DNA from: an uncultured bacterium
GTDB taxonomy: Bacteria > Oederibacteriota > JAAXVQ01 > JAUVAV01
Assembly (NCBI GenBank): GCA_963710755.1
Contig: CAVQBK010000003.1
Span: 64,001-128,000, forward strand
Length of the DNA stretch: 64,000 nt
Direction of reading: 5' to 3'
The notes beneath the pieces were generated by a model. It saw only the letters and a program-made list of their open reading frames with translations. It did not search any database and had not been told where the DNA came from. The first letter of the stretch is position 1, and each line of letters starts with the position of its first letter. Of the stretch, positions 6,074 to 34,345 are shown piece after piece. The translations under genes and the position numbers were made by a program.

Positions 6074-6090
6074 AAATATGCCCCCCAAAA

Positions 6091-6897: not shown

Positions 6898-7131
6898 ATA
6901 ACCTCCCTAAAATCCCTTGGGCCAGCGCATTTTTTCTATCAGCCACTTGAAGCCAAACCAACTATCCCAATTTCAACTAAAATCGATAAATTTTAACTCA
7001 CAATATTTGCTTATGCAAAATATCTTTACTCTTTTGTGTTGGAGGAACAAAAGCGTGGATGGCACCTAATTCGAAGTAATTATATAAGAGGGCCATCTCT
7101 ACTTTAAATGTGAATGTCTTGGGCACAGAAC

Positions 7132-7965: not shown

Positions 7966-8678
7966 TTGAAAACCACCCAGGTCGTAAAATTCATGAATTT
8001 AAAGACCGGATGCCAGGCCCTAAACCGGGCCTTAGAAAAAAGTGCTTCCATCTGGGTCACAGTAAAGGGAATCAGGATCGATTTGAGAGCTAGTTCTTTT
8101 TGTTCGATTTCCAGAGTGCTGTAGCCTTGCCGCGCTTTGAAACGGTAATAATGATCGGTCATGAGCGCATTGAGCCGGGAATCGTCACTGCCGGTCTTCT
8201 CCGACACAATCAATATCCCCTTGGGCACCAAGGCTGCGGCCATGCGCTCCAGCAGGCCGGGCCGTTGGTCCGGGTCTACAAATTGCAGGACATAGGCTGC
8301 GTTGATCACCGAAGCTTCGCTCAAAGGCGTGTCTTCAACGCCCTGCGCCAGCCAGTGTACAGACTTCAGATGACGGCATTTTTGTTGGGCCAGTCGGATC
8401 ATGTGGGGCGACTTGTCCACTGCCACCAGCTCGTACGGTTGCTGCAGGGCCTGGTCCATAGCCAGGACCGTGGTGCCGGTGGAGCAGCCCAAGTCATAAA
8501 TGCGCGTGTTGTCCTGGTAATAGCATGCCGTTGCTGCCGCCACAAAAGCCTGCAATTCGTGATAAAAGGGAATGGACCGGCTCGCCATGTCGTCAAAAAC
8601 CTCGGCCGTGGCCTGATCAAAAGTAAAGGGCGGCACAACACTTAATTTTTTACGATACAGCTCATCTGAAGGTGCCAT
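7962..8678 (-). CDS. cmoA: CmoA-family protein (carboxy-SAM synthase homologue) with atypical active-site residues
   Basis: FTFD..AEVFDDM..RSIPFY, YDLGCSTG, VLQF, SEK, FK..QGYS.LEI.QK, NFTT match CmoA. Confidence 0.8.
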   Translation of the reverse strand: MAPSDELYRKKLSVVPPFTFDQATAEVFDDMASRSIPFYHELQAFVAAATACYYQDNTRIYDLGCSTGTTVLAMDQALQQPYELVAVDKSPHMIRLAQQKCRHLKSVHWLAQGVEDTPLSEASVINAAYVLQFVDPDQRPGLLERMAAALVPKGILIVSEKTGSDDSRLNALMTDHYYRFKARQGYSTLEIEQKELALKSILIPFTVTQMEALFSKARFRAWHPVFKFMNFTTWVVFK

Positions 8679-8820
8679 AATTAAAATATCCTTTTATTTT
8701 TCGGAGCCTTGCTTCCGATAATGAGTTAGCCTGGTGTGGCCAATTTTTATTCGTTCCCCCGGCGTTTTCTGTTATAGTAATGTCCATGTAATTATTTCTT
8801 AAAAAGGCAGCTATTAAGCG

Positions 8821-9711
8821 ATGACCCCAACTTTAACCTTGGCCCTATACGCAGCAGCATTGTTATCCGGCGGGCTGACTTTCTATTATTTTTTCCAGAC
8901 CTATCGCGATTCCGGGCGCAGGCTGTGCTACCATTATCTGTTCTTTTTAATCGGGCTGAGTGCCTTGCTGGTGACCACTACGGTAGCCCATTACACCCAA
9001 CACGCCTTTCCAGGCCTGGTGCTGGGACGGCTAACGCAGTCAACCGTGATTCTAAGTTGCTCTATGCTGGTCTGGGCTTTGCCCAATTTAGTCCTCTCTC
9101 TGTATTATCACCCGGCTGCCAGTCAGTGGCATTACGTATTTTCCAATGCCGCGGTTGTCACCTCGCTGATGACGGTACTGCTTTGGTTCTGGCCGGTTCA
9201 GGCCATGGCCACCTTTCCTGTATTTATGGCTTATTTGGCTTTGGGCCTGGCCGCACTTTTTTCCGCAGCCGTACTTTATCAAAACCGTGACGCTGTAATT
9301 AAAGCTTCCTCCACTTTTTTAAAGCTGGCCATGGTGGTCTTTTTTGTGCTGGTCAGCCTGGTCATTTACGCCGAAGCCACCGCTGCTTGGCCAGCCTGGC
9401 CGGGCCTTACCTATAGTTTTCCCATGATTTTTCTACTCTGGAATGGGCTCTCCCTGCTGTTTAAATTCAACGCCCCCGGTGATTCGCTGGCCACCAAGTC
9501 GGCCATCCAAGCTTTTAAACGCGTTCACCAGCTTTCCGACCACGAAGAAGCCATCATTGAAAATATTTTGGCGGGAAAAATGAATGCAGAAATCGCCCGG
9601 GAAATGAATCTGCCCAAAGACATGCTGAACAATCAAATTAACAAGATCTTCCAAAAAGTCAAGATCCAAAACCGCCTCGACTTGCTGAAAAAGATCCACG
9701 AACTTCACTAG
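8821..9711 (+). CDS. Membrane-anchored LuxR-family transcriptional regulator
   Basis: About 7 hydrophobic segments, then LS..E..I...IL.GK.N.EIA...........I..IFQK..I.NR HTH. Confidence 0.8.
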   Translation: MTPTLTLALYAAALLSGGLTFYYFFQTYRDSGRRLCYHYLFFLIGLSALLVTTTVAHYTQHAFPGLVLGRLTQSTVILSCSMLVWALPNLVLSLYYHPAASQWHYVFSNAAVVTSLMTVLLWFWPVQAMATFPVFMAYLALGLAALFSAAVLYQNRDAVIKASSTFLKLAMVVFFVLVSLVIYAEATAAWPAWPGLTYSFPMIFLLWNGLSLLFKFNAPGDSLATKSAIQAFKRVHQLSDHEEAIIENILAGKMNAEIAREMNLPKDMLNNQINKIFQKVKIQNRLDLLKKIHELH

Positions 9712-22243: not shown

Positions 22244-25087
22244 ATGGAGCCTTCCCTGTCGTCCCCCGCTACCGAGCATCACACCGGACCCCACGATGTT
22301 TTTGTGGTGGAAATCGGCGCAGATCAATGTATCACGTTGGTTAATCCCGAATTTTGCCGGCTGACGGGCATGCCCGAGCATGAGCTGGTCGGTTTGAACT
22401 GGTTTGAAACGTTTGTGCCTTTCGAATGGCGCCAAAATGAACAATTGAAATTCATACAGTTGGTTAGCGGCAAACGTTGCAATGTTCAGTATGAAGAAAA
22501 CGAAATCCTGCTCCCCAGTGGCAAACGGTTGGCCATGGGCTGGCATCATAAGGTGGTAAAAAACGAGCATGACAGTATTGTAGGACTGCTCAGCTCGGGC
22601 GAAGACCTCAACCGTAAATACCACGTGGAACTATCCCTGCAGGAAGAGCGGCAAAAAGCCCAGATTTATCTGGATATCGTTGATGTGTTGGTTATGGTGA
22701 CGGATGCAGCCCAACAAATCCTGCAAATCAACCGCAAGGGTTGTGCCCTTTTGGAGAGCATGGAAAAGGCCATTGTTGGTGCCAACCTTGACCAGTTTTT
22801 ACCGCAGCCGGTCTTGGAGCAGCTGCGCGCGGGTTTTCAAAATGCTTCCGCCCAGGAAAACAAAACCAGCCTGAGTTTGGAAAGCGAGCTGTTTACGGCC
22901 TCCGGCAACAGCCGCATCATCGCCTGGCATCATCAATTTTTAAAAAACAGTCGCGGTGAGGTGACGGCCACCTTGAGCTCCGGCATTGACATAAGCCAGC
23001 AACGGCGAGCGGAGAAGTTGTTGCGCATCCAGCGTGACCTGGCCTTGCTGCTAACGTCAGCATTCCCGCAGGACACCTTCTTTGAAAAGTTCATTAAAAA
23101 ATTATTTGAAATTCCCGGCATCCATCAGGTAGGTTTGTACGACTATAATCCCCAGCACCAAAAACTGGTTCTCCAAACTTTTCAGCCCGCCCTATGGGCG
23201 CCCACCTCCGTGCCGTTCAACGATGCTATACACAAAGACTATTTGGTTCAACTGGAGAAAGGTACTCCTGTCTTTCTTAATGAAAAAAACACCGCCTTCC
23301 CGTCCAGTCTGACGGTCTTTCGCAGCGTGACCATTATCCCCCTCAATCATGGCGGTCGTTTTCTAGGGGCTATCAATCTGGCCTCTTCCCACTATGATAA
23401 GTTGGAAGAGGATATCCTAAATGTGCTCTATACTCTGTGCGCCCAACTGAGTACCATCATGGTGCAGCTCGAGGACCGCCAGGTTTATCGCACCACTGAA
23501 GCCCTGAACCATAACATTCTGGAGAATGTAGGCATGGGCATGATTTTACTGGATACCCAATTTAAGGTCATGGCCGTGAACAGCCAGATCCGGCGATGGT
23601 TCACCGATGTAACCGTTCACCGTGACCTGCGTGGCCACCAACTTATTGCCCAAACCGATCACCTGCATGCCCAATGCCCGGTCCAGCAAAGTCTGGATGA
23701 TGGCCAGCGCCATGAGGCCATCATTCCCTTTGGCTCGGACTGTCAGCATCAACGCTTTTTCCGCATGATCACCTCGCCTGTGTTGGGTGAGGATAACCGC
23801 GTTATTATGGGTATTATTGTATTAATCGAGGATGTGACCCAAAAAATCAAGACAGAAGAAGCTGTGCATAACATGCATTTGCGCACCGCCCAGATTTTGG
23901 CCTCCATCCCCTCCATTCTCATTGGTCTCAATGCCCACGACCGTATCTTCGAATGGAATACGGCTGCTGAAAAAGCATTTGGCCTGACTCAGGCACAAAC
24001 CATGTATCAACCGTTTTCAGCCCTGCCTTTAACCTGGAGTTTGCCGCCGGAAGTTAAACGTTTTCGTGCAACGTTGACCGGGCAACAGGAGCTGCATTGT
24101 CCGCGGGTGCCTTATCAGCGCGCCGACGGCAAAGAAGGCATTCTTGATCTGCGCATTTCTCGTATGGCCGGCACCGAAAACCAGGCCGATGAATTTCTGA
24201 TCGTGGGGTTGGATATTACCAAGAACCGGCTGTTGGAAGCCCAATTGTTGCAAGCTCAAAAACTGGAGTCCATTGGCCAACTCTCCGCCGGCATTGCCCA
24301 CGAGATCAATACACCCATTCAATATGTAGGCGATAACATCCGCTTTCTCGATGAAACCTTTTTGGAGTTCCAAAACCTGATCAATGAATTTCTGAATTGT
24401 TATAGCGCCTTTGAAAAAAATCAGCTGGAAGGAACTATGCTCGAGCGGCTTAATACCTTTATCCGCGAGATTGATTTGGATTTTCTCATGGAGGAAATTC
24501 CCTCGGCGGTAAAACAAGCTCTGGAAGGCGTAGAACGGGTGGCCACCATCGTACGGGCCTTAAAAGGTTTTGCCCACCCTGACCGGCCCGGAGAAATAAA
24601 AACCATTGATATCAACCAAGCCATTCAAAATACCATTACGGTAGCACGCAACGAATGGAAATATGTGGCTGAGATGGAAACCCAATTAGCCCAGGATCTG
24701 CCCCTAGTGGCCTGTTATCCCGGTGAATTCAATCAGGTGATTCTAAATTTGATTGTTAATGCAGCCCATGCCATCGGGGAAAAACTCAGCGACAACTCCG
24801 AACAAAAAGGTAAAATCACCATTATCACCAGCAGTACCGCTGAAGAAGCATGCATTGTGGTTTCCGACACCGGCACCGGCATTCCCAAAACCATTCAGGA
24901 TAAAATATTTGATCCTTTTTTCACCACCAAAGAAGTAGGCAAAGGCACAGGTCAGGGTCTGGCCTTGGCCCGCACGGTCATTACGGAGAAACATCATGGC
25001 CGCCTGGGGTTTAAAAGCGTTCCCGGCGAGGGGACGACCTTCACCATCTATTTGCCGATCAACGGTCAGGAGAATCCTAATGACTAA
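22244..25087 (+). CDS. Cytoplasmic multi-PAS/GAF sensor histidine kinase
   Basis: Several PAS repeats, GAF-like segment, QAQKLESIGQLSAGIAHEINTP H-box, NLIVNA, DTGTGI, FDPFFTTKEVGKGTGQGL. Confidence 0.93.
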   Translation: MEPSLSSPATEHHTGPHDVFVVEIGADQCITLVNPEFCRLTGMPEHELVGLNWFETFVPFEWRQNEQLKFIQLVSGKRCNVQYEENEILLPSGKRLAMGWHHKVVKNEHDSIVGLLSSGEDLNRKYHVELSLQEERQKAQIYLDIVDVLVMVTDAAQQILQINRKGCALLESMEKAIVGANLDQFLPQPVLEQLRAGFQNASAQENKTSLSLESELFTASGNSRIIAWHHQFLKNSRGEVTATLSSGIDISQQRRAEKLLRIQRDLALLLTSAFPQDTFFEKFIKKLFEIPGIHQVGLYDYNPQHQKLVLQTFQPALWAPTSVPFNDAIHKDYLVQLEKGTPVFLNEKNTAFPSSLTVFRSVTIIPLNHGGRFLGAINLASSHYDKLEEDILNVLYTLCAQLSTIMVQLEDRQVYRTTEALNHNILENVGMGMILLDTQFKVMAVNSQIRRWFTDVTVHRDLRGHQLIAQTDHLHAQCPVQQSLDDGQRHEAIIPFGSDCQHQRFFRMITSPVLGEDNRVIMGIIVLIEDVTQKIKTEEAVHNMHLRTAQILASIPSILIGLNAHDRIFEWNTAAEKAFGLTQAQTMYQPFSALPLTWSLPPEVKRFRATLTGQQELHCPRVPYQRADGKEGILDLRISRMAGTENQADEFLIVGLDITKNRLLEAQLLQAQKLESIGQLSAGIAHEINTPIQYVGDNIRFLDETFLEFQNLINEFLNCYSAFEKNQLEGTMLERLNTFIREIDLDFLMEEIPSAVKQALEGVERVATIVRALKGFAHPDRPGEIKTIDINQAIQNTITVARNEWKYVAEMETQLAQDLPLVACYPGEFNQVILNLIVNAAHAIGEKLSDNSEQKGKITIITSSTAEEACIVVSDTGTGIPKTIQDKIFDPFFTTKEVGKGTGQGLALARTVITEKHHGRLGFKSVPGEGTTFTIYLPINGQENPND

Positions 25088-26285
25088 AAAATACATTCTG
25101 TTTGTGGACGATGAGCCCAATGTATTGCAAGGCTTACGCCGCATGCTCCGGCCTATGCGTGAGATTTGGGATATCGATACAGCTGAGAGCGGCCAGCAGG
25201 CTCTGGCCAAATTGCAGGAGAACCGTTTTGATATCATTGTCACAGATATGCGCATGCCCGGCATGGACGGCAGCCAGCTCCTGCAACAAGTGATGGACCG
25301 CTATCCCCATATGGTGCGCATTGTCCTGTCCGGTCAATCAGATCAGCAAAGTGTGATGCGGGCTCTGGGCCCGGCCCATCAATATCTGGCCAAACCCTGT
25401 GATACGGACACTTTAAAAGCCACGGTGCAGCGCGCCTGCACCTTGCAGCAACTTCTGGCCAACGAAGCGCTGCGGCAAATTGTCTCTCAAATCAAATCCC
25501 TGCCCAGCCTGCCTTCGCTGTATACGGAGATCATGAAGGAACTACGTACTGAAGATCCCAGTATTGAAAAAATCGGCCGCATCATTAATCGCGACGCCGC
25601 CATGTCCGCCAAAATCCTGCAGATCGTGAATTCAGCTTTTTTCGGCTTTTACAATAATATCCAGGATCCCACGCGCGCTGTCACCGTATTGGGATTGGAT
25701 AAAGTACGCTCGTTGGTACTCACTATCCATATTTTTGCTGAATTTAATCAGGCCCATCTCAAAACCTTCAACCTGGGCGAATTATGGCATCATAATCTGC
25801 TGGTGGGGGAATGTAGCAAAAAGTTGGCGCAAAGCGTATCCTCCGACAAGGCGCTGCTCGATGAATGCTATATGGCCGGGTTGTTACATGACACAGGTAA
25901 GTTGATCTTAATGAATCATCAACCCGAGCTCTATGCCCAGGTCGTGGCTCAGGCCAAGGAACGCCAGGCACCACTGGAGGTGGTGGAGCAGGACCTATTA
26001 GGCGCCACTCATGCCGAGGTGGGGGCCTATTTGCTGGGGTTGTGGGGCCTGCCGCCCTCCATTATCGAGGCCATTGCTTTTCATCATCATCCGCGCAGTT
26101 GTGAAAATCAAAGTGTCATACCCCTTAGTTTCGTGCATACCGCTGATGCCTTGGTCTTGAAAAATCACAGTGGGCCATTGTTGGGAGCTTCTGCCTTGGA
26201 TACTGACTATATTCAGCATATCGGCCTGGAACCTCAGCTCAACCGCTGGCAGGCCCAATGCGAAGAGTTGACGAGAAAGGACTAA
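25080..26285 (+). CDS. Response regulator with HDOD domain
   Basis: ILFVDDE, TDMRMPGMDG; LPSLP, KILQIVNSAFFG, AGLLHDTGK, HAEVGAYLL.LWGLP; ATG 25080 overlaps the kinase end. Confidence 0.92.
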   Translation: MTKKYILFVDDEPNVLQGLRRMLRPMREIWDIDTAESGQQALAKLQENRFDIIVTDMRMPGMDGSQLLQQVMDRYPHMVRIVLSGQSDQQSVMRALGPAHQYLAKPCDTDTLKATVQRACTLQQLLANEALRQIVSQIKSLPSLPSLYTEIMKELRTEDPSIEKIGRIINRDAAMSAKILQIVNSAFFGFYNNIQDPTRAVTVLGLDKVRSLVLTIHIFAEFNQAHLKTFNLGELWHHNLLVGECSKKLAQSVSSDKALLDECYMAGLLHDTGKLILMNHQPELYAQVVAQAKERQAPLEVVEQDLLGATHAEVGAYLLGLWGLPPSIIEAIAFHHHPRSCENQSVIPLSFVHTADALVLKNHSGPLLGASALDTDYIQHIGLEPQLNRWQAQCEELTRKD

Positions 26286-26289
26286 GGTC

Positions 26290-27444
26290 ATGGCTGATCG
26301 GGTTTTATTCGTGGATGACGAAGAGAATATCCTGCACGGTTACAAGCGCACCTTAAGACGGGAGTTTACTGTTGATATCGCCACCAGCGGCGCCCAGGCT
26401 CTGGCCATGATCGATGCTGCCCCGGCTTACCCGGTCATTGTGTCCGATATGCGCATGCCCCAAATGGACGGCGTGCAGTTTTTAAGCGAAGTAAGCCGGC
26501 GCTACCCGGACACAGTGCGCATCATGCTTACCGGCCAGGCCGACATGCAGGATGCCATTGCCGCCGTCAATGAAGGCCATATCTTTCGCTTTTTAACCAA
26601 GCCCTGCGATTCTGTTACCCTGACCAAAGCCTTGACCGCCGGCCAGAACCAATATCGGCTGATCACCGCGGAACGGGAGTTGCTGGAAAAAACCTTGAAC
26701 GGCAGTATTAAAGTGCTGATGACCATTTTGTCGTTGGTCAATCCTGAAGCCTTCAGCCGCGCCGACCGTATCCGCCAAATTGTGGCCGGCCTGGTCACAA
26801 CCCTGAATCTTCCTCAAGGCTGGCAATTCGAGACTGCAGCCTTGTTGTCTCAAATCGGCTTGGTCACGTTGCCCACTGATATCATGACCAAATATATCAG
26901 CAACCAGTCCCTGACCAGCCAGGAAACTACCATGGTAGAATCCTGTCCTACGGTCAGCCACGATCTGCTGGCCGATATTCCCCGCTTGGATAAAATTGCC
27001 AAGATGATCGCCTGGCAGCAGGAGAACTATGCCAACCTGCACGACACCGCCACCTTGGGCCAGCCCCTGTCCGATAAGGATCAGATTAAAATCGGAGCTC
27101 AATTATTAAAAATTGGCTTGGCCTATGACAATATGCGCCACCGCGAACAATGTGCCCATTCCCATACCCTTAACACCCTTAAAGATCAACCCGAGGTATA
27201 TCATCCTCAACTTGTTCAGGCCCTGGCCGGTCTGCAGGCGCAAGAGGCACAGACCGTATCACAGGAGGTCAGTATTTTTAATCTGGATACGCGCATGATT
27301 TTGGATCAGGACATGATCACACATAAAAATGTGTTTTTAGCGGCCAAAGGCACTGATGTAACCTCAACCTTGATCACCTTTTTGAAAAACTATGTTGTCC
27401 GTAATGAGGTGGATGAAATGGTCAAAGTGAAATTGCCGGCTTGA
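26290..27444 (+). CDS. Response regulator with degenerate HD-GYP-like domain
   Basis: VLFVDDE, SDMRMP, LTG, FLTKP; SQIG replaces the HDIG motif. Confidence 0.88.
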   Translation: MADRVLFVDDEENILHGYKRTLRREFTVDIATSGAQALAMIDAAPAYPVIVSDMRMPQMDGVQFLSEVSRRYPDTVRIMLTGQADMQDAIAAVNEGHIFRFLTKPCDSVTLTKALTAGQNQYRLITAERELLEKTLNGSIKVLMTILSLVNPEAFSRADRIRQIVAGLVTTLNLPQGWQFETAALLSQIGLVTLPTDIMTKYISNQSLTSQETTMVESCPTVSHDLLADIPRLDKIAKMIAWQQENYANLHDTATLGQPLSDKDQIKIGAQLLKIGLAYDNMRHREQCAHSHTLNTLKDQPEVYHPQLVQALAGLQAQEAQTVSQEVSIFNLDTRMILDQDMITHKNVFLAAKGTDVTSTLITFLKNYVVRNEVDEMVKVKLPA

Positions 27445-27555: not shown

Positions 27556-27630
<75 letters not shown>

Positions 27631-27663
27631 TCGTATATTAATGAAGTTTGTCCGAGGGGTAGG

Positions 27664-27692
27664 ACTTTAGCATATCTGCCCAGGAATGTCCA
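27664..27692 (-). promoter_or_regulatory. Putative sigma70 promoter of the tRNA
   Basis: TGGACA-17 nt-TAAAGT with an extended TG. Confidence 0.5.
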
Positions 27693-27753
27693 GGGGGGCG
27701 GCTAAAAATTTTTAAATTTCCCGCATTTCAGTGCGGGTATTGGTGCGAACCCA

Positions 27754-29091
27754 TTACGCCGATCCCCATAGCGACCGCCAGCGGCGGCGAGTCGGTCTGC
27801 GCCATTTCCGAGGTTGGGCAAAAAGTTCCGGGTAGTGTTGTTTTAATAGCCTGAGAGATGGCAGCAAAGCTCCTGGCAAGGACAGCTTTGATCCGTTTTC
27901 CAGGGTAAACTTCAAACTCCCTTGGCCGGCGTATAACCGCGATAACAGCGGCAGGTATTCTTCCACCATGACCTTTTGCCGCGCTAGGGATACCTGTCCA
28001 AGTTGGGTTGTCAACTGCTGGAGCAGGTGCCGCCCTAAAACCAGCCTCAAAGGCATTGGCAGCAATCGGAACCCAGGATTAACTGTCGCGGTCAGGGCAG
28101 TGACCAGCAAGAGAGATGGCCAAGGCTTGATCTCAGCTTGTTGGTGGGCCCAAAAAAGCACCCTTAAAACCATAGCGATCATCATTCCTTGTTGACCTGA
28201 CCCCTTGGCTGGATTGGTGCTCACAAGGCCCGGCCACCACATGGGCACGGTCAGGATCCATAGACTTTGATCCTGGCTGCGCTGCAAGCCAATCCCCCAG
28301 CCTTGGCGGATACGAATGCGCCCGGCCAGGTCCAGGGCATGGTCCCCGTCCGTGCGGCCAAAAAGCAAAGGAAATTGCTTGGCCATCCTGCCGATCACAT
28401 GCCCTTCCAGATAGTCCTGACCGATACGGCCCGGGCCCAACAACTCGCGCAGGCCGGGCAGTTGCTCCGGGGTTTTCAGCGCCTCGGCATGAATGCGCAA
28501 GGCCAGATGGAGCAAGTTGTGCGATTGCAGGCCTGCCAGACCCAGGGCCGTGGCCAGCACAGGCGTCAGGGTAAAAGCCCCTGCCGCCAAAGTCAACGTG
28601 AGATTGAAAAGGCTCAGGCCCATGGCCCAAAGCGCATTCTTCTTTTCCCCGGGGGAAAGCGCTTGCCAGCTCAAACGGCCGCCTTTAAACAAATGAGCCG
28701 GCGCGAAGAGCAGCCAATAAACCGCGTTGCTGGTCAGCAAGGTGGCGGCCACCTGCGGAGCTGTCATCCACCCGGCCAGACCCGCCGCCAAGGTAAACGC
28801 CTGCGCGGCCAGCAGGGGCAGGCCTTCGAGCCACCAGGCGTTCTCCTGGTAGCGCTTACTGGTCCAGCTCCAATGGATAGCGGTCCAAGTTTTCAACCAC
28901 GGCATCATACCACCAGTGAGCTGATTTTCCTGTTCCTGTTGCACCCCTGCTTTTTTAAGCAACATGGAAAACCAAGAGTTCTTTAAAACCTCAGAGTCTA
29001 TATTCTTCAAGTTTTGATAGCGTTCTTCCGCGAAGTATTCTTCGGTCCAGTTCTGCGAATTCCTTATCGCGCGAGCTCTACATCTTGCCAA
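27754..29091 (-). CDS. C-terminal membrane-associated part of the frameshifted giant protein
   Basis: No convincing RBS or start; overlaps the previous ORF; same frame as 30247..34137; TM segments and an Arg-rich tail. Confidence 0.6.
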   Translation of the reverse strand: MARCRARAIRNSQNWTEEYFAEERYQNLKNIDSEVLKNSWFSMLLKKAGVQQEQENQLTGGMMPWLKTWTAIHWSWTSKRYQENAWWLEGLPLLAAQAFTLAAGLAGWMTAPQVAATLLTSNAVYWLLFAPAHLFKGGRLSWQALSPGEKKNALWAMGLSLFNLTLTLAAGAFTLTPVLATALGLAGLQSHNLLHLALRIHAEALKTPEQLPGLRELLGPGRIGQDYLEGHVIGRMAKQFPLLFGRTDGDHALDLAGRIRIRQGWGIGLQRSQDQSLWILTVPMWWPGLVSTNPAKGSGQQGMMIAMVLRVLFWAHQQAEIKPWPSLLLVTALTATVNPGFRLLPMPLRLVLGRHLLQQLTTQLGQVSLARQKVMVEEYLPLLSRLYAGQGSLKFTLENGSKLSLPGALLPSLRLLKQHYPELFAQPRKWRRPTRRRWRSLWGSA

Positions 29092-30260
29092 AATAATCTA
29101 ACCTTATCCGGCGTTTTGCTGGCCCAGCGGTTAAGCGTTTGCTGTAATACTATTCCAATTTCTCCAACAGAGTAAGCCTTAAAATACTTCGGAAAAGCAT
29201 TACGCGCCCAAAGCCATTCTTGCATTAAGTTGGCCAAGCTGGCAGGATCAAGCTTAGGTAAAATGTGTTCCATCAACATCTTTTGGGGCAAGAGCGAGGC
29301 CCAACGGCTGGGCATAAAATTGATAGTGCTGCAAAACGCCAACAGGGGATCAAGGTGTAATCCCGCCAAATCGACGGTCACATTTTTTAATATCTTTACC
29401 AAAATCTCAGGATCTTTTTGGGTCAATGTTTCTAAAATGGGGGGCTGCTGCTTCGAAATGTTGCCCATCATATCAAAGCCGATAAGGCGCAAATGCGCTT
29501 GTCCCGGAAAAGCGATGAATTTATAAAAGGCTTTATCATCACTGTGGTAAAGTAATTCCAATAATTGAATGATTTTGGGGTTTTCCAAGGGCCCCACATA
29601 CTGCGTCACCCACTGGTTGACCTTTTCTATTTCACTTTGATCAATGACTTTTTCCTTGGTGAAATCAAGGGTGGGTAATTGATAACGAAAAAGCCATAAG
29701 TTGACCAGGGCCATAATCAGATCATGATTATCCCGGGTGATCAATTCAGGGTGCTGATTTCTTAAAAATTCCAAGGGTTCTTCGATTTCCTGGCTGATCT
29801 TCATCGGTTCTTCAGGATTGTCGATCCATTGGTTGATATGGCTTTCCAGGTCTTTCCTTTCTCTTTCCACTCGTTTTTTATAACTGTCCAACCAAGACAC
29901 GACTTTCCGGTAAAGCTTTATTTTTTCTTCCTCACCATCGACAGAGCCGGGGCTTTCGCAGTACTTTTCCACAATAGATGTTTGGGCTTGGTCCGTCACA
30001 TCATCGGCAAAGACCCGCCCCGAATTGCCATCAACCGTCACCAGGTAACCAACCTTGGTTTTGACATTTTGTTTTTCAAATTTAATATATTCATCACCCG
30101 CTTTAAAATTGAAGGATGACGATTTCCCCAGGCCCAAGACACAGGGACGCAGTTCATGGGATTCACGCAACAAGGCTGAGGCATGGGAAAACTCAGCTCC
30201 TGATTTTTCCAGCACGGCCACACAATAAGGATTGTTAATCAACTCATCATGAATCTTTTT
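29064..30260 (-). CDS. Middle part of the giant protein: PPDK-like phosphohistidine swivel domain plus unknown region
   Basis: G..FSHAS.L.RE...PCV.G and VTVDGNSGRVF continue the PPDK homology that breaks off at about 30250. Confidence 0.65.
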   Translation of the reverse strand, partial: KKIHDELINNPYCVAVLEKSGAEFSHASALLRESHELRPCVLGLGKSSSFNFKAGDEYIKFEKQNVKTKVGYLVTVDGNSGRVFADDVTDQAQTSIVEKYCESPGSVDGEEEKIKLYRKVVSWLDSYKKRVERERKDLESHINQWIDNPEEPMKISQEIEEPLEFLRNQHPELITRDNHDLIMALVNLWLFRYQLPTLDFTKEKVIDQSEIEKVNQWVTQYVGPLENPKIIQLLELLYHSDDKAFYKFIAFPGQAHLRLIGFDMMGNISKQQPPILETLTQKDPEILVKILKNVTVDLAGLHLDPLLAFCSTINFMPSRWASLLPQKMLMEHILPKLDPASLANLMQEWLWARNAFPKYFKAYSVGEIGIVLQQTLNRWASKTPDKVRLFWQDVELAR

Positions 30261-33200
30261 CCGACCGCTCCACCACCAGTACAAATGGTTCTCTACGATC
30301 GGCATAGTCCATGGCCTGACGCTTGGTGAACACCACACGGCCGGCTTTGATACCCACGGCCGCACCCTGACCCACAGCCGCCAAGGCATGGTCAATTTCA
30401 TCAGGCAAGCGCGGTGCTCTTAAGGACCGTTCCATCCAGATCAAGGTACTTATATCAATGTTTTCAAAAAGGTCTTCCATATTGATAAGCTTGTGATTTA
30501 ACATATGGCGTATCACTTTGATCTTAGCTTCCGGATAAAGTTTCTTACCTGCACTTCTGACCTGTAAAATATAGAGCTTGCCGTCTTCCACGGTGAACTC
30601 AACATCAACCACGTTCTTTAATTGGGTTTCAAAAAATTTAACCCAATGCTGCAATTCGTTATAGACAGCTTCACCAATTTCTTCTTTTAATTGATTAATA
30701 CCATCAGGCGTGACCAAACCGCCCACAATGGCCTGGCCACTGCGGGCTCTTTTCCAGTTGCCGGTCATGCGATTGTCACCGGTTTTAAAATCACGGGAAT
30801 AAACCACACCGGCCCCGGAGTTGTCGTTCTTGCCGCCAAAAACCATTTTCTGGACGGTCACACCCGTACCGGTATTGGGTACATTGAAGCGCTCGCGGTA
30901 GTCTATGACTTCCTTGTCATTCCAAGAATTCATGACCCGCTCGGTAGCGACAGCAAGTTGTTGGTGAACATCTTGGGGAAATTCAAAGCCATGGAGCTTG
31001 ATTTGTTCTTTAAACTCCTCAATCAGCCGTTGCGAATCTGCTTTTTTAAAATAATTGCCCTGCATCTCTTCTGCCATTAGGCCGCGCAATGCTTCAAATT
31101 CCTTGGGATCAATGCCAAAAACCTTGGTGGCAAAGCCTTCGATGGCTGTGGAATAGACGTACCAGGCATAATTCTCATTGTCCCATTGTTTGGCTAGGCC
31201 GTTTACGGTTTCATCGTTTAAACCGAGAAAAAAGACGGTTTCCATCATGCCCGGCATGGAAGTGTCCGCGCCGGAGCGTACGGATACCAAGAGGGGATTA
31301 TCCTTGTCTCCAAACGTTTGGCCTGTATCTTGGTTCAACTGACGTATGCCCCGTTTCAAGGCGGCTTTGTGGGCGAGCAGCAACTTGCCTCTATTGGCAA
31401 TCACCTCCAGGGAAGCTTTGGCGCGCATGACAAAGCCCGGCGGTACCGGTGCCCCCCATAGGCACATGTTGATCAATCCCCGTCCTTTACCGCCGGCGTC
31501 TTTCAAAAAGGCTTCATTAATTTTTGTTTTCATACTCTGATGAAAATTAACTATAAGCGGTATTTTTTTGGAAAGACGGACATGGATAGTCCCTAGTGCG
31601 CCTATGAGCCAAGGCAAAAATTTAAATAAAAACACCAGACCCAGTGCGGCTTCAAAAACCGCTTGCTTTCCATCTGGCGCTTTGCCAGCCAAAACCTTTC
31701 GGCCATCGGTCAGACTAAGAGGAATAAAATTAATCACCGCCAGCAGGGCATTCACCGTCATAGTGAGATGTAACCATAATAAAACCACACCCAGCGGTTG
31801 AAAACTAAGGATGCTTATAAAGGCCGCGGCCGCCAGGCCCGCATTGGCAGCCGGACCGGCCAAAGCCACCAGGCGTACATGATTAATATTCTTTAATTTT
31901 TTCTCATTGATGGGCATGGGTTTAAGCATGGCTAAAATAGGCCACCCGAAAAGATAATGCATGGCTGCCAATGCCAAAGGCAACACGATGGTGCCCGGCA
32001 AGGATATGTGTTTAAAAATATTGAGGGTCAGGCGCCCGGCTTTTTCCGCCGTATTATCGCCAAAGATTTTGGCCACTCGGGCATGGCTGTACTCATGCAA
32101 CGCCAGGGAAAACAAAATGATCAGTACTGCCCCGGCGACCACACCAGCCAACATCATTGCCGGCATCGTGATACCCGGCCAAATGGCAAAATACCATTTC
32201 ACGGCCACCGTCAAAAGACCTAACGCCCCTGCTGCCGAAACCACCGCATGCAACCAAATACCTTGTTTGGTTAATAGAAAATGCTGGTAGTGCTGTATGG
32301 TGGGGTTGGTAGCCAAGAAGGTTGGGATCTTTCGCCACAATTTTAATAATGGGGTCGCAGGGTGAAGGAATACCTCAACCGCCTCCCGCGACACGCCTTG
32401 TTTCCTAGCAGACCTAGATGCAACCCACGCTGTTTGCAGACATTGATCATAATTATCAAAAAAAACGATGGTCCATTGAGAAAAATGCTCCACCGTGCCC
32501 CACGGCGTACCCTCCCGGCCCTTCAGCCTCCGGGGAGTAATTAAGGCCCAAACCTGGTGCGGAGGACCCTTTGGATCTTGAACCGCAATGGGGTGTATCA
32601 CCATACCGGCTGGAAGTTTTGCCCTGGCATCGGTGTCAGGCCCGTTATCTTGGTTGGCAGCAAGAATTTGCTGCTGTTGGGGGGGGAGTTTTTCCCAAGC
32701 TGCCCGGGCCAAAGCGTCCAGGGTTAACTCAACACTTTGCCGATACAGCATTGGATGAGCCTGTGGCCACAAAGGCGGGGCCATGTTGGTTTGAGTGCGA
32801 ACCAGTAACTTTTCCAAAGGCAACAGCTTGTCCTGCAAAATATTGAAGTACGGATTGATCATGTCGGTTTTGGTCACTGTGGGCCTGATGACCACGTAAT
32901 TCATGCCTTGCTGTTTAAGGGCCTTCAGCACGCCCTGGCGGTGAAAACCGCCCATAATCAGCACGGCCAAATCTTCATGACGCTGCAACAGACGCTGCTT
33001 CACATTGGCTGCAAAGGCCAGACTGCGTTCATCAGCCAGGCGGTAAAAGGTTCCCACCTGCCGGAGATAGTCGTCCAGTCGATAAAGCTCCGGTTCGACC
33101 CCATCGCCAATCTTTTTTTGCTGAGCAATGAATTGCAAAAAAGCAGCCATACGATAATCCTCAGCATGTGCTTGGTAGGCGGCCCATTCCTCATTGGAAA

Positions 33201-34137
33201 TGGAAATACTGAGCATACGCCCAATCATCTCCGCCCGCGCCAGCAGCTGATCCAGTTTCATTTCCTGCGGCGTTTGATATAACTTCTGCCTGATGGCTTG
33301 ATCGAGGCGCTCCAAATCCTTGCCGGCCGGTTCCATGTCCTGAGGGGCGATCTTGCCATCATCCAGCCGTTCCAGCAGCTGTTGCTGACTGTACTCCAGA
33401 ATGAGCTTAACCCTCCTGGCCCACAGTCTGAGGAGGCGGGCATAGGCTCTAATGGTGAGCTTATTGTTTCGGAAATCTGTTTTCAGCCCATCAAAGGCGT
33501 AAAGCGCCTTGTGATAAACAGAAGACTTCAAGTCCTTTAACCGATCTTGCAAGTCCGCCACCAAGCCCTGGGTTTCCATGTTTAAAAAAGCTTTAACCGT
33601 GTGGTGCGCCTTCTGGTAAAGAACTTGATTTTCCACACCGAAAAGTTCCACCTCCGATGTCTGCCCGGCCGCAAAATATTCCGCGCCTGTCAGCTTGCCT
33701 TGTTTCATAAAATAATCCGCCGCCATTTGCCGCAACCAAGCAACGGGAAAGGTACGCAGCGGACCGAGATCCACCGTTCCGCTGCCGCCTTCCAACCCAA
33801 TGATTCCAATATCTTGTGACTTAAGAAGTCGGGTTAAAATAGAGGCAATGTTCTTTTGCACTTCGTAATGGCAGTGCAGATCTTCAATACAGATAATCGT
33901 TTGACCTGATGATCCCTGATAGCGGTCCTGCACGCGGCCAATGGCTTCGGGCAACTGTAACGGTTGCTTCAAGGCTCCCCAGACAGGCAAGGTATGGGGG
34001 GGGGACTTATAGACGATGGGATTTATGGTCCAGGCCAGGGCAGGCCATAAAAAAGTGGTGATCAGCATAAGGACGATCATCCGCCGGATGGCGGCGTAGG
34101 AACGGATGAAAAGATGAGAAAAACATTTATTGGTCAT
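30247..34137 (-). CDS. N-terminal part of the giant protein: signal peptide, large N-terminal domain, M50 site-2 protease, PPDK nucleotide-binding domain
   Basis: EDLHCHYEVQKNI, GLEG, GKLTGAEY, GGFH; LHEYSH..AGP.AN..NFIP...TDG; GGKG, PVPPGF, LLVSVRSGA..SMPGMM, DVEFTVEDGKLYILQ.R; ATG 34137. Confidence 0.8.
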   Translation of the reverse strand: MTNKCFSHLFIRSYAAIRRMIVLMLITTFLWPALAWTINPIVYKSPPHTLPVWGALKQPLQLPEAIGRVQDRYQGSSGQTIICIEDLHCHYEVQKNIASILTRLLKSQDIGIIGLEGGSGTVDLGPLRTFPVAWLRQMAADYFMKQGKLTGAEYFAAGQTSEVELFGVENQVLYQKAHHTVKAFLNMETQGLVADLQDRLKDLKSSVYHKALYAFDGLKTDFRNNKLTIRAYARLLRLWARRVKLILEYSQQQLLERLDDGKIAPQDMEPAGKDLERLDQAIRQKLYQTPQEMKLDQLLARAEMIGRMLSISISNEEWAAYQAHAEDYRMAAFLQFIAQQKKIGDGVEPELYRLDDYLRQVGTFYRLADERSLAFAANVKQRLLQRHEDLAVLIMGGFHRQGVLKALKQQGMNYVVIRPTVTKTDMINPYFNILQDKLLPLEKLLVRTQTNMAPPLWPQAHPMLYRQSVELTLDALARAAWEKLPPQQQQILAANQDNGPDTDARAKLPAGMVIHPIAVQDPKGPPHQVWALITPRRLKGREGTPWGTVEHFSQWTIVFFDNYDQCLQTAWVASRSARKQGVSREAVEVFLHPATPLLKLWRKIPTFLATNPTIQHYQHFLLTKQGIWLHAVVSAAGALGLLTVAVKWYFAIWPGITMPAMMLAGVVAGAVLIILFSLALHEYSHARVAKIFGDNTAEKAGRLTLNIFKHISLPGTIVLPLALAAMHYLFGWPILAMLKPMPINEKKLKNINHVRLVALAGPAANAGLAAAAFISILSFQPLGVVLLWLHLTMTVNALLAVINFIPLSLTDGRKVLAGKAPDGKQAVFEAALGLVFLFKFLPWLIGALGTIHVRLSKKIPLIVNFHQSMKTKINEAFLKDAGGKGRGLINMCLWGAPVPPGFVMRAKASLEVIANRGKLLLAHKAALKRGIRQLNQDTGQTFGDKDNPLLVSVRSGADTSMPGMMETVFFLGLNDETVNGLAKQWDNENYAWYVYSTAIEGFATKVFGIDPKEFEALRGLMAEEMQGNYFKKADSQRLIEEFKEQIKLHGFEFPQDVHQQLAVATERVMNSWNDKEVIDYRERFNVPNTGTGVTVQKMVFGGKNDNSGAGVVYSRDFKTGDNRMTGNWKRARSGQAIVGGLVTPDGINQLKEEIGEAVYNELQHWVKFFETQLKNVVDVEFTVEDGKLYILQVRSAGKKLYPEAKIKVIRHMLNHKLINMEDLFENIDISTLIWMERSLRAPRLPDEIDHALAAVGQGAAVGIKAGRVVFTKRQAMDYADRREPFVLVVERSEKDS

Positions 34138-34345
34138 GGTTAAATCCTGCTTAAAGAAAGTGCAAGGCAGAGCAGAGGGCAAAGTTGGTCAACTATAACA
34201 AAAGCAAGATAAAGGGCCAAATTAAAATATGAGACTCCCTATATATTCTGATTTCCAACCCGGTCTTGGTTTTAATCTGAAACAAAGCAAGTTGTGATTT
34301 TTGTAGTAATACCTAACCCCTCATGTCGATACCTCTGCTTGGTCA

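Follow-up and report, generated by a model that had tools for sequence, protein, structure and literature searches.

Within the window (the whole 64,000-nucleotide stretch of DNA analysed here), the minus strand carries three overlapping open reading frames at 30247..34182 (ORF1, 1311 aa with a TTG start), 29064..30401 (ORF2, 445 aa) and 27754..29091 (ORF3, 445 aa), with overlaps of 155 nt between ORF1 and ORF2 and of 28 nt between ORF2 and ORF3. In the database, gene call P0060 is 1296 aa long, which places the start of ORF1 at the ATG at 34137. None of the pieces contains an internal stop. The features of the locus are collected in Table 1. They include a tRNA gene downstream, described in the sequence-only reading as tRNA-fMet; it is a tRNA-Met(CAT) by its Rfam match, and two hallmarks of bacterial initiator tRNAs can be read directly from its sequence, the C1xA72 mismatch and an anticodon stem closed by three G-C pairs.

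Table 1. Features of the locus, in the direction of the gene (positions are those of the window).
Feature	Position	Strand	Remarks
ORF1	30250..34137	-	N-terminal 1,296 codons of ancestral gene; premature stop at 30247-30249
N-terminal hydrophobic helix	34030..34077	-	IVLMLITTFLWPALAW; signal peptide or N-in anchor
N-domain	32700..34029	-	about 450 aa, family hallmark; paralogue alignment, AF2 model, fold searches
N-domain motifs	DLHC 33871-33882; LEGG 33784-33795; GKLTGAEY 33676-33699; GGFH 32941-32952	-	
Second hydrophobic helix (TM2)	32194..32262 (end approximate)	-	GIWLHAVV...; family-conserved, after N-domain
M50 (site-2-protease)-like membrane block	31600..32193 (limits approximate)	-	about five hydrophobic segments
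M50-like motifs	HEYSH 32083-32097; NFIPLSLTDG 31702-31731	-	ORF1 aa 696-700; aa 818-827
PPDK-derived ATP-grasp (nucleotide-binding) domain	30250..31509	-	PF01326 PPDK_N, 100.7 bits
Frame break 1	30252..30253	-	one surplus T in GATTCAT
Phospho-His swivel (PEP-utilizer mobile) domain	30009..30251	-	FSHASA 30174-30191; TVDGNSGRVF 30009-30038
All-helical region	29079..30008	-	about 300 aa, alpha-solenoid-like in model; AT-rich stretch, GC 0.41-0.45
Frame breaks 2 and 3	29035..29082 (approximate)	-	about 36 nt apart; three-frame translation against P0151, FWQDVARRDKEFSELKPEEYFAED
C-terminal hydrophobic block	28090..28840	-	hydropathy peaks at ORF3 aa 91, 114, 168, 303, 326
Family C-terminal module and Arg-rich tail	27757..27921	-	GSLKFTLENG...LSLP...; stop codon 27754-27756
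Arg-rich tail	27757-27813	-	PRKWRRPTRRRWRSLWGSA; ends ORF3
Hairpin and T-run	about 27700-27735		between gene and tRNA-Met(CAT)
tRNA-Met(CAT)	27556-27630	-	Rfam 68.3 bits; 124 nt downstream, not part of gene

The three ORFs are pieces of a single gene whose ancestral form had about 2,120 codons. An intact orthologue, P0151, encodes 2,114 aa in a single ORF that is colinear with all three, at identities of 68% to ORF1 (1,251 aligned residues), 90% to ORF2 (355/394) and 69% to ORF3 (294/427). Compared with the locus by tblastn, P0151 gives three HSPs in two frames; its residues 19-1279 fall on 34083-30256, and homology begins again at residue 48 of ORF2 and residue 17 of ORF3. A 10-residue link with RDKEFAEL, found by three-frame translation against P0151, joins the ORF2 and ORF3 pieces in the third frame. 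Furthermore, in the paralogue L034 a single frame covers both the ATP-grasp domain (972-1388) and an ORF2-like part (1393-1745). The gene of about 2,100 codons proposed from the letters is thus borne out by a colinear relative, and that nearest relative holds all of the parts in one ORF rather than as separate genes. All of the parts that had been noted are present: the signal-type helix, the N-domain, the M50-like block, the PPDK ATP-grasp and His-swivel domains, the hydrophobic segments and the Arg-rich tail. The middle had also been described as AT-rich. In 600-nt windows its GC content is 0.41-0.45, just above the 5th percentile of the genome (0.407; mean 0.496, SD 0.05), and the true outlier is the GC-rich 3' end at 0.56-0.62, beyond the 99th percentile (0.592).

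The protein begins with a head that is common to its family: a hydrophobic N-terminal helix with positively charged flanking residues, a conserved site of the small-x-small, W-A-F-E/D type, and then the 450-aa domain. Around the first helix, the mean number of Lys and Arg residues is 3.42 in the N-flank and 0.62 in the C-flank (77 representatives). The cleavage-type site after it reads ALAW-TINP in this copy and W-A/S-F-E/D-N in most members, with the W[AS]F[EDN] motif in 87 of the 150 representatives listed. An alignment of 29 paralogues shows that the motifs DLHC, LEGG, GKLTGAEY and GGFH are invariant or almost so, and the invariant residues include a His-Cys, a Glu-Gly, an Arg and a Gly-Gly-x-His.

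Sequence searches of Pfam, NCBIfam and PDB with the N-domain gave no match, and its likely relationships were approached through an AF2 model (pLDDT 83.7) with an alpha/beta core and a large helical insert. The best Foldseek match was the erythromycin esterase EreC (6xcs, E 1.6e-3, probability 0.97), followed by 6xcq, 2rad and 3b55. VIA aligned the model with HopBA1 (5t09, Z 8.8, 173 aligned), EreC (6xcq, Z 8.8, 192), ChaN (2g5g, Z 8.7, 180), 2qgm (Z 8.1) and 2rad (Z 8.0), and these TIKI-type entries make up five of the top six rows. The matches are middling, with Z of 8-9, rmsd of 4.2-5.0 A and Foldseek E just over 1e-3. TIKI proteins are laid out as signal peptide, domain and TM helix, TraB/PrgY proteins likewise, and members of this family share that layout. 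In the sections of PMC6254334 that cover them, the same fold-match entries are listed as members of the TIKI superfamily with a catalytic His-Glu pair, which in Bcr135 (3b55/2rad) is His-85/Glu-113. Invariant H88 and E116 of the N-domain have the same 28-residue spacing, and a second His, H399 within GGFH, lies in a G-x-x-H. Unlike the superfamily, the N-domain is without a sequence-profile match, includes about 220 residues of helical insert (roughly 170-390 in the model), carries D-L-H-C rather than G-x-x-H as its first motif, and is followed by thousands of residues. The TIKI, TraB-PrgY, erythromycin esterase and ChaN proteins are the best matches for the predicted alpha/beta core and, along with the invariant His, Glu and GGxH, this predicted fold points to an N-domain of the TIKI/erythromycin-esterase/ChaN hydrolase superfamily.

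A second hydrophobic helix usually follows about 250 residues after this domain. Among 124 representatives, 93 have a hydrophobic peak after GGxH, at a median distance of 246 aa, and in this copy homology to paralogue C1_145408 (ORF1 34-667) passes through TM2. The M50-like block comes next. It scores 25.4 bits against PF02163, below the cut-off of 27.2, or 21 bits alone and 30.1 bits with its neighbours in frame, and its HEYSH is HDYSH in P0151. The ATP-grasp domain, 92.8% identical to that of P0151, also matches TIGR01828 at 292.7 bits over positions 17-425 of 865. In the swivel domain, whose FSHASA motif occupies residues 71-76 of ORF2, the residues S25, H26, D77, G78 and G81 are invariant across seven aligned modules; canonical PPDKs align with it at TSHA, and VIA matches it to residues 435-516 of maize PPDK (1vbg, Z 4.6). 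Of the near-invariant positions of 29 canonical PPDKs, 96 of the 137 covered are kept, the TSHA histidine included.

The order of ATP-grasp and then phospho-His swivel with Ser-His-Ala is that of pyruvate, phosphate dikinase. The enzyme continues with a PEP/pyruvate TIM-barrel (PF02896), for which there was no match in the gene; a helical domain stands in that place, and the whole module, unlike the enzyme, sits within a membrane protein. Its identity to the stand-alone PPDK of the same genome is 35%. An ATP-grasp domain followed by a swivel is also the order in truncated relatives of PPDK, PEP-synthase-like phosphotransferases such as rifampicin phosphotransferase, for which the NCBIfam search gave no more than a row at E 0.071. 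The all-helical region (AF2 pLDDT 74.7) has no recognised family, no Foldseek match at E<=1e-3 and a best VIA Z of 7.4, and homologous modules lie within giant frames of G003, G009 and G007. Further downstream, residues 145-303 of ORF3 match the C-terminal part of paralogue C13_520358, and the family tail forms the end of ORF3.

The N-domain is present in 31 of the 11,152 six-frame ORFs (>=80 aa) of the genome, always near the start. These ORFs, of 635-9,474 aa each, total 80,801 aa, or about 7% of the genome. The C-terminus of most members consists of a hydrophobic block and a short module with a K/R-rich tail finishing in Ser/Ala-Ala; this tail is found in 19 of the 31 and in 9 of 1400 other ORFs. 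Their middles vary, holding PPDK_N, LMWPc, a transglutaminase core, HD_5, TreT/GT1, GNAT or nothing recognisable, and many members contain multiple hydrophobic segments, as many as 37 in the one of 9,474 aa. Five further members are likewise split into overlapping ORFs. The search by shared termini that had been suggested therefore recovers paralogues with different middles, and supports the proposed conserved chassis with variable cargo.

Beyond this genome, 15 of the 99 genomes in the phylum encode the N-domain, and all 15 belong to one order (15 of 41 relatives, with 7-44 matches per genome). There are 9,706 metagenomic representative clusters, and the domain starts no later than residue 49 in all but one of the 150 representatives listed. 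Enzyme-like modules in the relatives include kinases, PPDK, enolase+TIM+PGK, PGM+transaldolase, Glu dehydrogenase, helicases and methyltransferases, and the longest open frames reach 13,678 aa. This is a large, unnamed family of giant modular membrane proteins, restricted to one order.

Three joined ORFs would lead one to expect two frame changes, and the gene has three; this copy is therefore a pseudogene or a mis-called consensus. At break 1, ORF1 ends in SEKDS-stop and the homologous reading goes on in the +1 frame as HDELINN, where P0151 has ERSEKTHDELINN. At breaks 2 and 3, the reading passes from FWQDV in the frame of ORF2 through SSRDKEFAEL, which is in the third frame, to TEEYFAEE in that of ORF3. 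As written, the native start could yield only the first 1,296 codons, comprising the head, the M50-like block and the ATP-grasp domain. We read the interrupted copy as one that was probably inactivated recently.

It is possible, if on balance doubtful, that the organism itself has an intact gene and that the breaks are errors of assembly or of a mixed-strain consensus. A 238-nt contig from another metagenome (run X1; 30101-30337, 99% identical, two other letters) has one base fewer at 30252, and the three stop-free pieces are 69-90% identical to an intact orthologue. The shifts total +3, so that the last piece returns to the first frame. The central block is found in four runs at 95-99% identity, and related strains could therefore be collapsed in assembly; given the five other split members, assembly indels at a modest rate could account for every break. 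Against this, no long homopolymer is found at any of the three breaks, and three breaks within 1.2 kb are far denser than the estimated rate of roughly one per 36 kb (eight breaks across some 290 kb belonging to the family). With 13 contigs, the genome reaches 98.17% completeness, and uninterrupted frames are present in 25 of the 31 members, one of them 28 kb long.

The sequence-only reading had proposed a different role for the family, that of a delivery scaffold possibly directed at a host or prey. The conserved head and tail would then bring the protein out of the cell and insert it into another cell or move it across, and the variable middle would be cargo acting in the host or prey cytoplasm, by analogy with MARTX or polymorphic toxins but with metabolic and signalling enzymes as cargo. 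The family shares with these toxins its very long proteins, conserved ends and swappable central modules. Cargo types that depend on ATP, NAD or PLP (Pkinase, PPDK, enolase+TIM+PGK, PGM+transaldolase, Glu dehydrogenase and helicases) require a cytoplasm, and the family is large and fast-turning. By Kyte-Doolittle segment parity, the PPDK part of this copy lies outside. TIKI-fold domains occur in the injected effectors RRSP, PMT and HopBA1, according to the relevant sections of PMC6254334, and a predation-tool role is proposed for giant Omnitrophota proteins in sections of West-Roberts et al. (bioRxiv 10.1101/2023.11.21.568195). We nevertheless consider delivery unlikely. No recurrent neighbour that would fit a dedicated secretion system was seen up to 6 kb from any of the 31 loci, the only recurrent neighbours being response-regulator-type ORFs at six loci, and the neighbours in the window are ordinary. 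The many hydrophobic segments of many members, unlike MARTX and polymorphic toxins, suit integral membrane proteins rather than released toxins. Also in contrast to these toxins, no adjacent export genes were seen, and neither an autoprocessing cysteine protease nor an RTX-type repeat was seen in the 10 members scanned. The recognisable cargo of the family consists of metabolic and signalling enzymes rather than of toxins. The genome, at 3.4 Mb with many sensor kinases, does not indicate an obligate partner.

Very improbable is the remaining idea, that three ordinary genes are translated separately (from the possible starts ATG at 30401 and TTG at 29091) or that one gene uses programmed frameshifting, since P0151 and L034 run through the junctions in single ORFs, the putative ORF2 and ORF3 starts lie in out-of-frame sequence without an orthologue counterpart, and frameshifting would require three +1 events, two of them only 36 nt apart, with no slippery site seen.

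Giant signal-peptide-plus-TM proteins with several enzymes have already been described as a kind, in the Omnitrophota 'multi-enzyme metabolic cluster' proteins treated in sections of two preprints (bioRxiv 10.64898/2026.06.07.730766; bioRxiv 10.1101/2023.11.21.568195). As far as those sections go, they resemble this family in having a signal peptide and scattered TM helices, and in placing cytoplasm-type enzyme domains (PGM, GT1, methyltransferase, HATPase_c, GNAT and HD, with PPDK_N named in a figure legend) among long stretches without a recognisable family. Helical scaffolding is common to both, as are multiple copies in each genome and members that are unique in sequence. The catalogued proteins have at least 10,000 or at least 30,000 aa, compared with about 2,100 for this copy and 635-9,474 for the members in its genome. 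The available text of both preprints does not contain 'TIKI', 'erythromycin' or the ChaN protein (a lone 'chan' string aside), and the sections covered do not describe a common N-terminal domain or C-terminal tail; in the sections of West-Roberts et al., N-terminal regions are generally without identifiable domains except C39 and S8 peptidases. The likeness to giant proteins of Omnitrophota/Elusimicrobia-like lineages suggested in the sequence-only reading fits some labels (Atlas clusters and P0294). The genome records that carry the N-domain are titled FCPU426, Firestonebacteria or Goldiibacteriota.

With moderate confidence, we favour the explanation that the locus is one broken gene of a modular family, with an exported, anchored hydrolase head and a cytoplasmic phosphotransfer middle. 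That cytoplasmic enzymes are part of an exported protein may cease to be a paradox if a TM helix after the N-domain leads the chain back to the cytoplasm. The flanks of this second helix have equal charge (1.45 and 1.39 K+R), and by our own count segment parity places about four of the recognisable cytoplasm-type domains inside and four outside. If the HExxH helix is oriented as is usual in site-2 proteases, this clashes with an exported N-domain that is followed by a single helix. On the favoured explanation, Sec would export the N-domain, predicted to be a TIKI/Ere-type His-Glu hydrolase at the outer face of the cytoplasmic membrane, and the protein would remain anchored in the membrane of the cell that makes it. 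The middle of this copy would combine the M50-like membrane block, the ATP-grasp and phospho-His swivel without a PEP/pyruvate domain, and the helical scaffold, and its ATP-dependent module would act as a His-mediated phosphotransfer unit on the cytoplasmic side rather than as a pyruvate, phosphate dikinase. Across the family, the gain, loss and exchange of such middle modules would provide the diversity of its members.

The interval 27754-34182 holds three overlapping minus-strand reading frames that are better annotated as one interrupted gene than as three proteins. Consecutive frames overlap by 155 nt (ORF1 and ORF2) and 28 nt (ORF2 and ORF3), and the database gene call for ORF1 is 1296 aa, which places its start at the ATG at 34137. 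The proposal, made from the sequence alone, that the frames join into a single gene of about 2,100 codons is borne out by P0151, an uninterrupted 2,114-aa ORF in the assembly of a public run, with which all three are colinear. P0151 was found by a word-indexed search with the part of the gene containing the M50 and PPDK regions, to which it is 75% identical across 97% of the query part. ORF1 residues 34-1309 align with P0151 19-1279, ORF2 48-441 with 1278-1671 (355/394 identical), and ORF3 17-437 with 1684-2106 (294/427 identical). In addition, the ATP-grasp and an ORF2-like part share one frame in the paralogue L034, and three related genomes have ORF2-like modules within one frame each, of 8,763, 8,820, and 8,807 aa. 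Because P0151, L034, and the related genomes carry these parts in single frames, both separate genes and programmed frameshifting were rejected as explanations; the possibility that relatives encode the parts as ordinary separate genes fails on P0151 in the same way.

Overlapping reading frames of the giant gene, in window coordinates
Feature	Coordinates	Strand	Length	Frame
ORF1	30247..34182	-	1311 aa	same as ORF3
ORF2	29064..30401	-	445 aa	+1
ORF3	27754..29091	-	445 aa	

Three breaks separate the frames. At break 1, P0151 reads ERSEKTHDELINN, and the window gives ERSEKDS and then a stop, with HDELINN in the next frame. A 238-nt contig of metagenome run X1, with just two further differences from the window, lacks a single base at 30252, within the TT of GATTCAT, so that a near-identical relative keeps the frame at this point. 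A further two +1 changes, separated by about 36 nt, make up breaks 2 and 3: where P0151 reads FWQDVARRDKEFSELKPEEYFAED, the window passes from FWQDV in the ORF2 frame through SSRDKEFAEL in a third frame to TEEYFAEE in the ORF3 frame. None of the three breaks lies at a long homopolymer. Among the metagenome contigs of four runs, none extends across 29002-29154, which holds breaks 2 and 3. Within the swivel region, a contig of a relative from run X3 carries an in-frame TTG insertion behind 30068; small indels near this position are thus either tolerated or polymorphic.

Two explanations of the breaks can be considered. Judged from sequence, the locus may hold a broken copy of the gene, a recent pseudogene. 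Alternatively, the breaks may be consensus errors and the gene intact in the organism; the pieces are free of stops and highly similar to the intact orthologue P0151, and five other members in this genome are likewise split into overlapping ORFs. Set against consensus errors are the clustering of three breaks inside 1.2 kb and the quality of the assembly, which is 98% complete in 13 contigs and in which one 28-kb frame stays open. Overlapping ORFs in different frames are found at C3:409593-423663 (two, of 1079 + 3642 aa) and C13:366379-383045 (3461 + 2177 aa), each with a family-type C-terminal tail on the downstream ORF, and at C6:5580-16438 (2327 + 1298 aa) and C1:314880-321624 (1171 + 1157 aa). 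The fifth split case is at C4:21437-45829 (+), where an 8,131-aa ORF ends in a family-type tail; by HMM, both this ORF and a 399-aa ORF overlapping its start are without the N-terminal domain.

The gene belongs to a large family that is recognized by its N-terminal domain, or head. The N-terminal 450 aa gave 33 matches in its own 3.44-Mb genome, and an HMM of 29 copies, run against 11,152 six-frame ORFs of at least 80 aa, recognized the domain in exactly 31, always near the start of the frame. The 31 member frames span 635-9,474 aa and total 80,801 aa, about 7% of the genome; the other copies are 28-38% identical to the head at this locus. The domain occurs in 15 of 41 relatives (10/10 in family f1, 4/4 in f2, and 0/26 in other families), with 7-44 matches in each of 14 other genomes searched in its order; phylum-wide, it is present in 15 of 99 genomes, all of one order. 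In a search across species genomes, 304 candidate loci yielded 276 that were confirmed, and the titles of 80 loci name candidate division FCPU426, Candidatus Firestonebacteria, Candidatus Goldiibacteriota, or 'uncultured bacterium'. Omnitrophota is named by Atlas cluster labels only; the sequence-only reading, which had likened the N-terminus to giant proteins of Omnitrophota/Elusimicrobia-like lineages, agrees with some labels. At E<=1e-3, 9,706 clusters were matched among 1.84 billion metagenomic representatives. The domain begins within residue 49 in 149 of the 150 best representatives, in proteins of up to 7,768 aa. Despite these thousands of clusters, Pfam and NCBIfam hold no model, and no description of the family was found.

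Residues 1-600 of ORF1 have no Pfam or NCBIfam match at E<=0.1, and a profile of A1, the alignment of 29 paralogue heads, found nothing relevant among PDB sequences; chain matches to PilO (E 0.2) and a rice protein (E 2) were rejected as noise. An AlphaFold (AF2) model of the head (pLDDT 83.7, pTM 0.74) has an alpha/beta core formed by residues ~60-170 and 390-420, with a helical insert of ~220 residues. The core is a central parallel beta-sheet flanked by helices, as expected of TIKI, Ere, and ChaN proteins, with moderate scores that give support at the level of the fold. The four best PDB rows in Foldseek belong to the erythromycin-esterase family: EreC 6xcs (E 1.6e-3, probability 0.97), then 6xcq, 2rad, and 3b55. 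In VIA, an independent all-against-all aligner, HopBA1 5t09 (Z 8.8, rmsd 4.3, 173 aligned), EreC 6xcq (Z 8.8, rmsd 4.3, 192 aligned), ChaN 2g5g (Z 8.7, rmsd 5.0, 180 aligned), 2qgm (Z 8.1), and 2rad (Z 8.0) all fall within the six best rows, at middling Z, with alignments of 159-192 residues over model residues 44-439. PMC6254334 gives these very entries as members of the TIKI superfamily and describes a 2His/2Glu site in which a His-Glu pair, His-85/Glu-113 in Bcr135, is catalytic.

Positions invariant in the 29 paralogues of A1, numbered in the protein encoded at 32700-34137, are P32, H88, C89, Q94, E116, G117, G147, G151, G167, G191, L354, F364, Y365, R371, G396, G397, H399, P419, Y430, and E442. 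The spacing between H88 and E116 is 28, the same as in the pair of Bcr135, and H399 lies in GGFH, a match at the level of sequence. Given the fold matches, their listing in PMC6254334, and the H88/E116 spacing with H399 in G-G-x-H, we read the head as a putative TIKI/Ere-type hydrolase domain. As a candidate hydrolase of 450 aa it is tractable, with three invariant catalytic-type residues open to mutation.

At the other end, ORF3 terminates in the tail PRKWRRPTRRRWRSLWGSA. Tails of this type, defined by at least four K/R among the 25 C-terminal residues and an ending in [SAGQTNM][SAG][AV], occur in 19 of the 31 member ORFs vs 9 of 1400 other ORFs of at least 300 aa, and three of these nine are downstream continuations of split members, ORF3 of this locus included. 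Paralogues of the kind that the sequence-only reading proposed to search for are present, with a shared head, differing middles, and this tail in 19 of 31. The tail was also seen in 69 of the 150 best representatives (64 of the 110 with at least 1,500 aa) and in 0/116 PPDK-like controls. A weakly conserved module of ~60 aa lies ahead of it, and ORF3 residues 145-303 and 423-443 have counterparts in the C-terminal part of a 3,413-aa paralogue, equally far from its end. The tail is a short, testable candidate signal.

Signal-peptide and TM assignments rest on crude hydropathy. The first hydrophobic helix has an export-type charge distribution, with 3.42 K+R on the N-flank vs 0.62 on the C-flank (77 representatives), and is followed by W[AS]F[EDN] in 87 of 150 representatives (the best 150 of 9,706). 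A second, family-conserved helix lies at ORF1 ~641-662, where homology to a paralogue spans the whole helix; its flanks carry 1.45 vs 1.39 K+R, and the positive-inside rule is uninformative. Kyte-Doolittle segment counts ahead of cytoplasm-type domains, a crude measure, gave both parities, and segment parity was abandoned as an indicator of topology because the result was mixed and the measure too crude.

Behind this helix is an M50-like block. HEYSH (aa 696-700) and NFIPLSLTDG (aa 818-827) lie within hydrophobic segments of ORF1, the arrangement of HExxH and NxxPxxxxDG in membrane helices that marks M50 proteases, and the orthologue P0151 has HDYSH in place of HEYSH. The Pfam score for Peptidase_M50 is 25.4 bits vs a cut-off of 27.2; in the genome search, the block scored 21 bits by itself and 30.1 when neighbours in the frame were counted with it. 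The genome has three stand-alone M50 genes. These two motifs, FSHASA of the swivel, and the tail all lie where the sequence-only reading had placed them.

The next module begins with an ATP-grasp (PF01326 PPDK_N, 100.7 bits in ORF1). Compared with 29 canonical PPDKs, it retains 96 of their 137 near-invariant positions, the swivel histidine among them, with FSHASA aligning with TSHAAV of the canonical enzymes; the swivel Ser-His and DG..G are invariant in seven aligned modules. PF02896, the PEP/pyruvate domain, has no match in ORF1, ORF2, or ORF3, and TIGR01828 scores 292.7 bits vs a cut-off of 843.45 over model positions 17-425 of 865. With that domain missing and the score below cut-off, the module is, on its sequence, PPDK-derived and not a PPDK. 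The genome's own stand-alone PPDK is 35-36% identical to it. In a tree of 37 rows, six giant-embedded modules lie on one side of a branch (support 81/89), set apart on long branches from 31 canonical PPDKs; 12 giant rows had been offered, of which three were dropped as short and four were without a BLAST match at 1e-5. The tree argues, at most, for an old capture of this module type. A pile-up of matches at 31235-31300 reflects a conserved PPDK motif common to many other organisms. That ATP-grasp/His-swivel modules have been captured repeatedly, without their substrate domain, suggests that they form a new group of enzymes for phosphotransfer. After the swivel, a region of ~300 residues of stacked helices (model pLDDT 74.7) appears to be helical-repeat-like; its best VIA match has Z 7.4 (condensin HEAT, MgtE N-domain), and Foldseek gave none at E<=1e-3. 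Pfam and NCBIfam searches of ORF2 and ORF3 returned only sub-threshold FKBP26_IF and PrcB, which were rejected, and an Atlas search with ORF3, with scores of 0.79 or below to clusters labelled XopX or SseF and a recognition of 1597, fell short of the threshold set for such searches and was not used.

The middles of other members are diverse. In nine other members of this genome, PPDK_N follows the head in three and PEP-utilizers in two, with one each of LMWPc, transglutaminase core, STAND/AAA_5, HD_5, TreT_GT1+GT1, and GNAT; two of the nine have nothing at E<=1e-4 after the head. Precomputed Pfam families are carried by 26 of 48 relatives of 2,296-5,000 aa and include Pkinase, full PPDK, AAA_11/12 helicases, methyltransferases, HATPase_c, ABC1, GH130/GH43, WD40, FHA, and Glu/Leu dehydrogenase. 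Five proteins with the same head (P0274, P0281, P0285, P0275, and P0294) contain runs from central metabolism: enolase+TIM+PGK; PGM+transaldolase; serine acetyltransferase+aminotransferase class V; and Glu dehydrogenase+PPDK_N.

Conservation along the gene is mosaic. Identity to P0151 is 56-70% in the head, 28% in the linker, and 45-58% in the M50 block, then 81-97% from ORF1 residue 859 to ORF3 residue 216, 74% over the next 100 residues, and 31% over the last ~100. Short contigs on 28234-31172, mostly at 95-99% identity, come from marsh, salt-marsh, and wetland metagenomes (four runs in as many studies), and only short pieces of low likeness lie upstream of 31400. The central block may have been exchanged recently, or the head and tail may be evolving faster. 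A search for a recombinant scaffold, with a closer head than that of P0151 and other cargo, found none within the searched length band of a 5.8-billion set, where P0151 has the closest head (60%; next 38%), and leaves cassette exchange unsupported. Elsewhere in the genome, members at C11:5739-7643, C12:3-7175, and C4:146561-150529 are alike in their first 1.6-1.9 kb and then diverge; nucleotide identity there is 99.6% for C11 vs C4 and ~82% for C12 vs either, and the 9-kb contigs C11 and C12 may be strain variants or recent head-sharing recombinants. In 600-nt windows, GC is ~0.50-0.53 in the head, 0.45-0.50 in M50/PPDK, 0.41-0.45 in ORF2, and 0.56-0.62 in ORF3 (genome mean 0.496, SD 0.05, 5th percentile 0.407, 99th 0.592). 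The middle is AT-richer than the ends, as had been remarked, and the true outlier is the GC-rich 3' end.

Giant multi-enzyme proteins are, as a general phenomenon, already in print. Two preprints describe giants of Omnitrophota with a signal peptide and TM helices that tile many enzyme domains (bioRxiv 10.64898/2026.06.07.730766; bioRxiv 10.1101/2023.11.21.568195), a 'multi-enzyme metabolic cluster' class and a TM helix or signal peptide in 94% of long proteins (bioRxiv 10.64898/2026.06.07.730766), and PPDK_N among the domains of one giant (West-Roberts et al., bioRxiv 10.1101/2023.11.21.568195). The present family shares the signal peptide and TM helices (here by hydropathy) and several unrelated enzyme domains in one polypeptide. 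It differs in that those giants are of at least 10,000 aa and from the phylum Omnitrophota, whereas this copy has ~2,100 aa and the largest member in the genome 9,474 aa. TIKI, erythromycin esterase, ChaN, and a shared head or tail are absent from the main texts of both preprints, and among the literature matches listed, none dealt with giant proteins in FCPU426 or Firestonebacteria. The family represents this phenomenon in a different lineage and range of sizes, and here a head domain and a tail define it. MARTX-like toxins have repeat-containing ends, an internal autoprocessing protease, and a type I export locus; none of these was seen in Pfam scans of 10 members or among recurrent neighbours, which is the extent of that comparison.

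What is observed is the anatomy of the gene, the residue conservation in the head, an N-terminus of export type, the histidine of the swivel, and middles that vary. In the mechanism proposed alongside them, the head would be exported and its hydrolase would act at the outer face, the protein would stay in the membrane of its producer with ATP-dependent modules facing the cytoplasm, and the PPDK-derived unit would serve as a His-phosphotransfer device for some acceptor. Topology is the weak point of this mechanism. The usual orientation of the S2P HExxH helix is at odds with a head that is exported and has just one helix after it. Delivery of the cargo into a host or prey is unlikely, and is kept in consideration because the topology evidence is mixed, with an unbiased second helix and segment parities of both kinds; against it, no recurrent neighbour of the family loci suggests a dedicated export system. 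Those neighbours are response-regulator-type ORFs only, at six loci, and were judged to be background.

At this locus they lie at 22244-27444 (+), where a PAS histidine kinase precedes a pair of response regulators whose outputs are HDOD/HD and HD_5; similar ORFs near five further family loci were likewise judged background. On the other side, 38717-43804 (-) encodes a 1,695-aa protein with Ser/Thr kinase, AAA_16, TPR, GAF, and SpoIIE phosphatase domains, a sizeable signalling chain in a single polypeptide with no link to the giant gene. The tRNA-Met(CAT) at 27556-27630 has a C1xA72 mismatch and a GGG/CCC anticodon stem, which we take to be the marks of an initiator. Between it and the stop of the gene (27631-27753), a CCCGCA...TGCGGG hairpin followed by an A/T-rich run looks like a terminator, and a -35/-10-like pair ahead of the tRNA was read by eye.

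Catalogues of giant bacterial proteins have so far relied mainly on length. The fixed head and tail give a handle on the present set, and an HMM of the head recovers the family in full. A bolder reading, which we consider quite improbable at present, is that the exported TIKI-like head and the K/R-rich tail are the ends of a hitherto unrecognized chassis, with which bacteria from a single order in a candidate phylum would display or hand over captured enzymes of central metabolism and signalling at a cell-cell interface. Its cargo would comprise PPDK modules, enolase+TIM+PGK, PGM+transaldolase, kinases, and helicases; recombination would pass central blocks from gene to gene, and processing of the giant protein or its target would fall to the head. 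If this were true, the chassis would be a polymorphic-effector-like system in which the cargo is metabolism rather than toxins.
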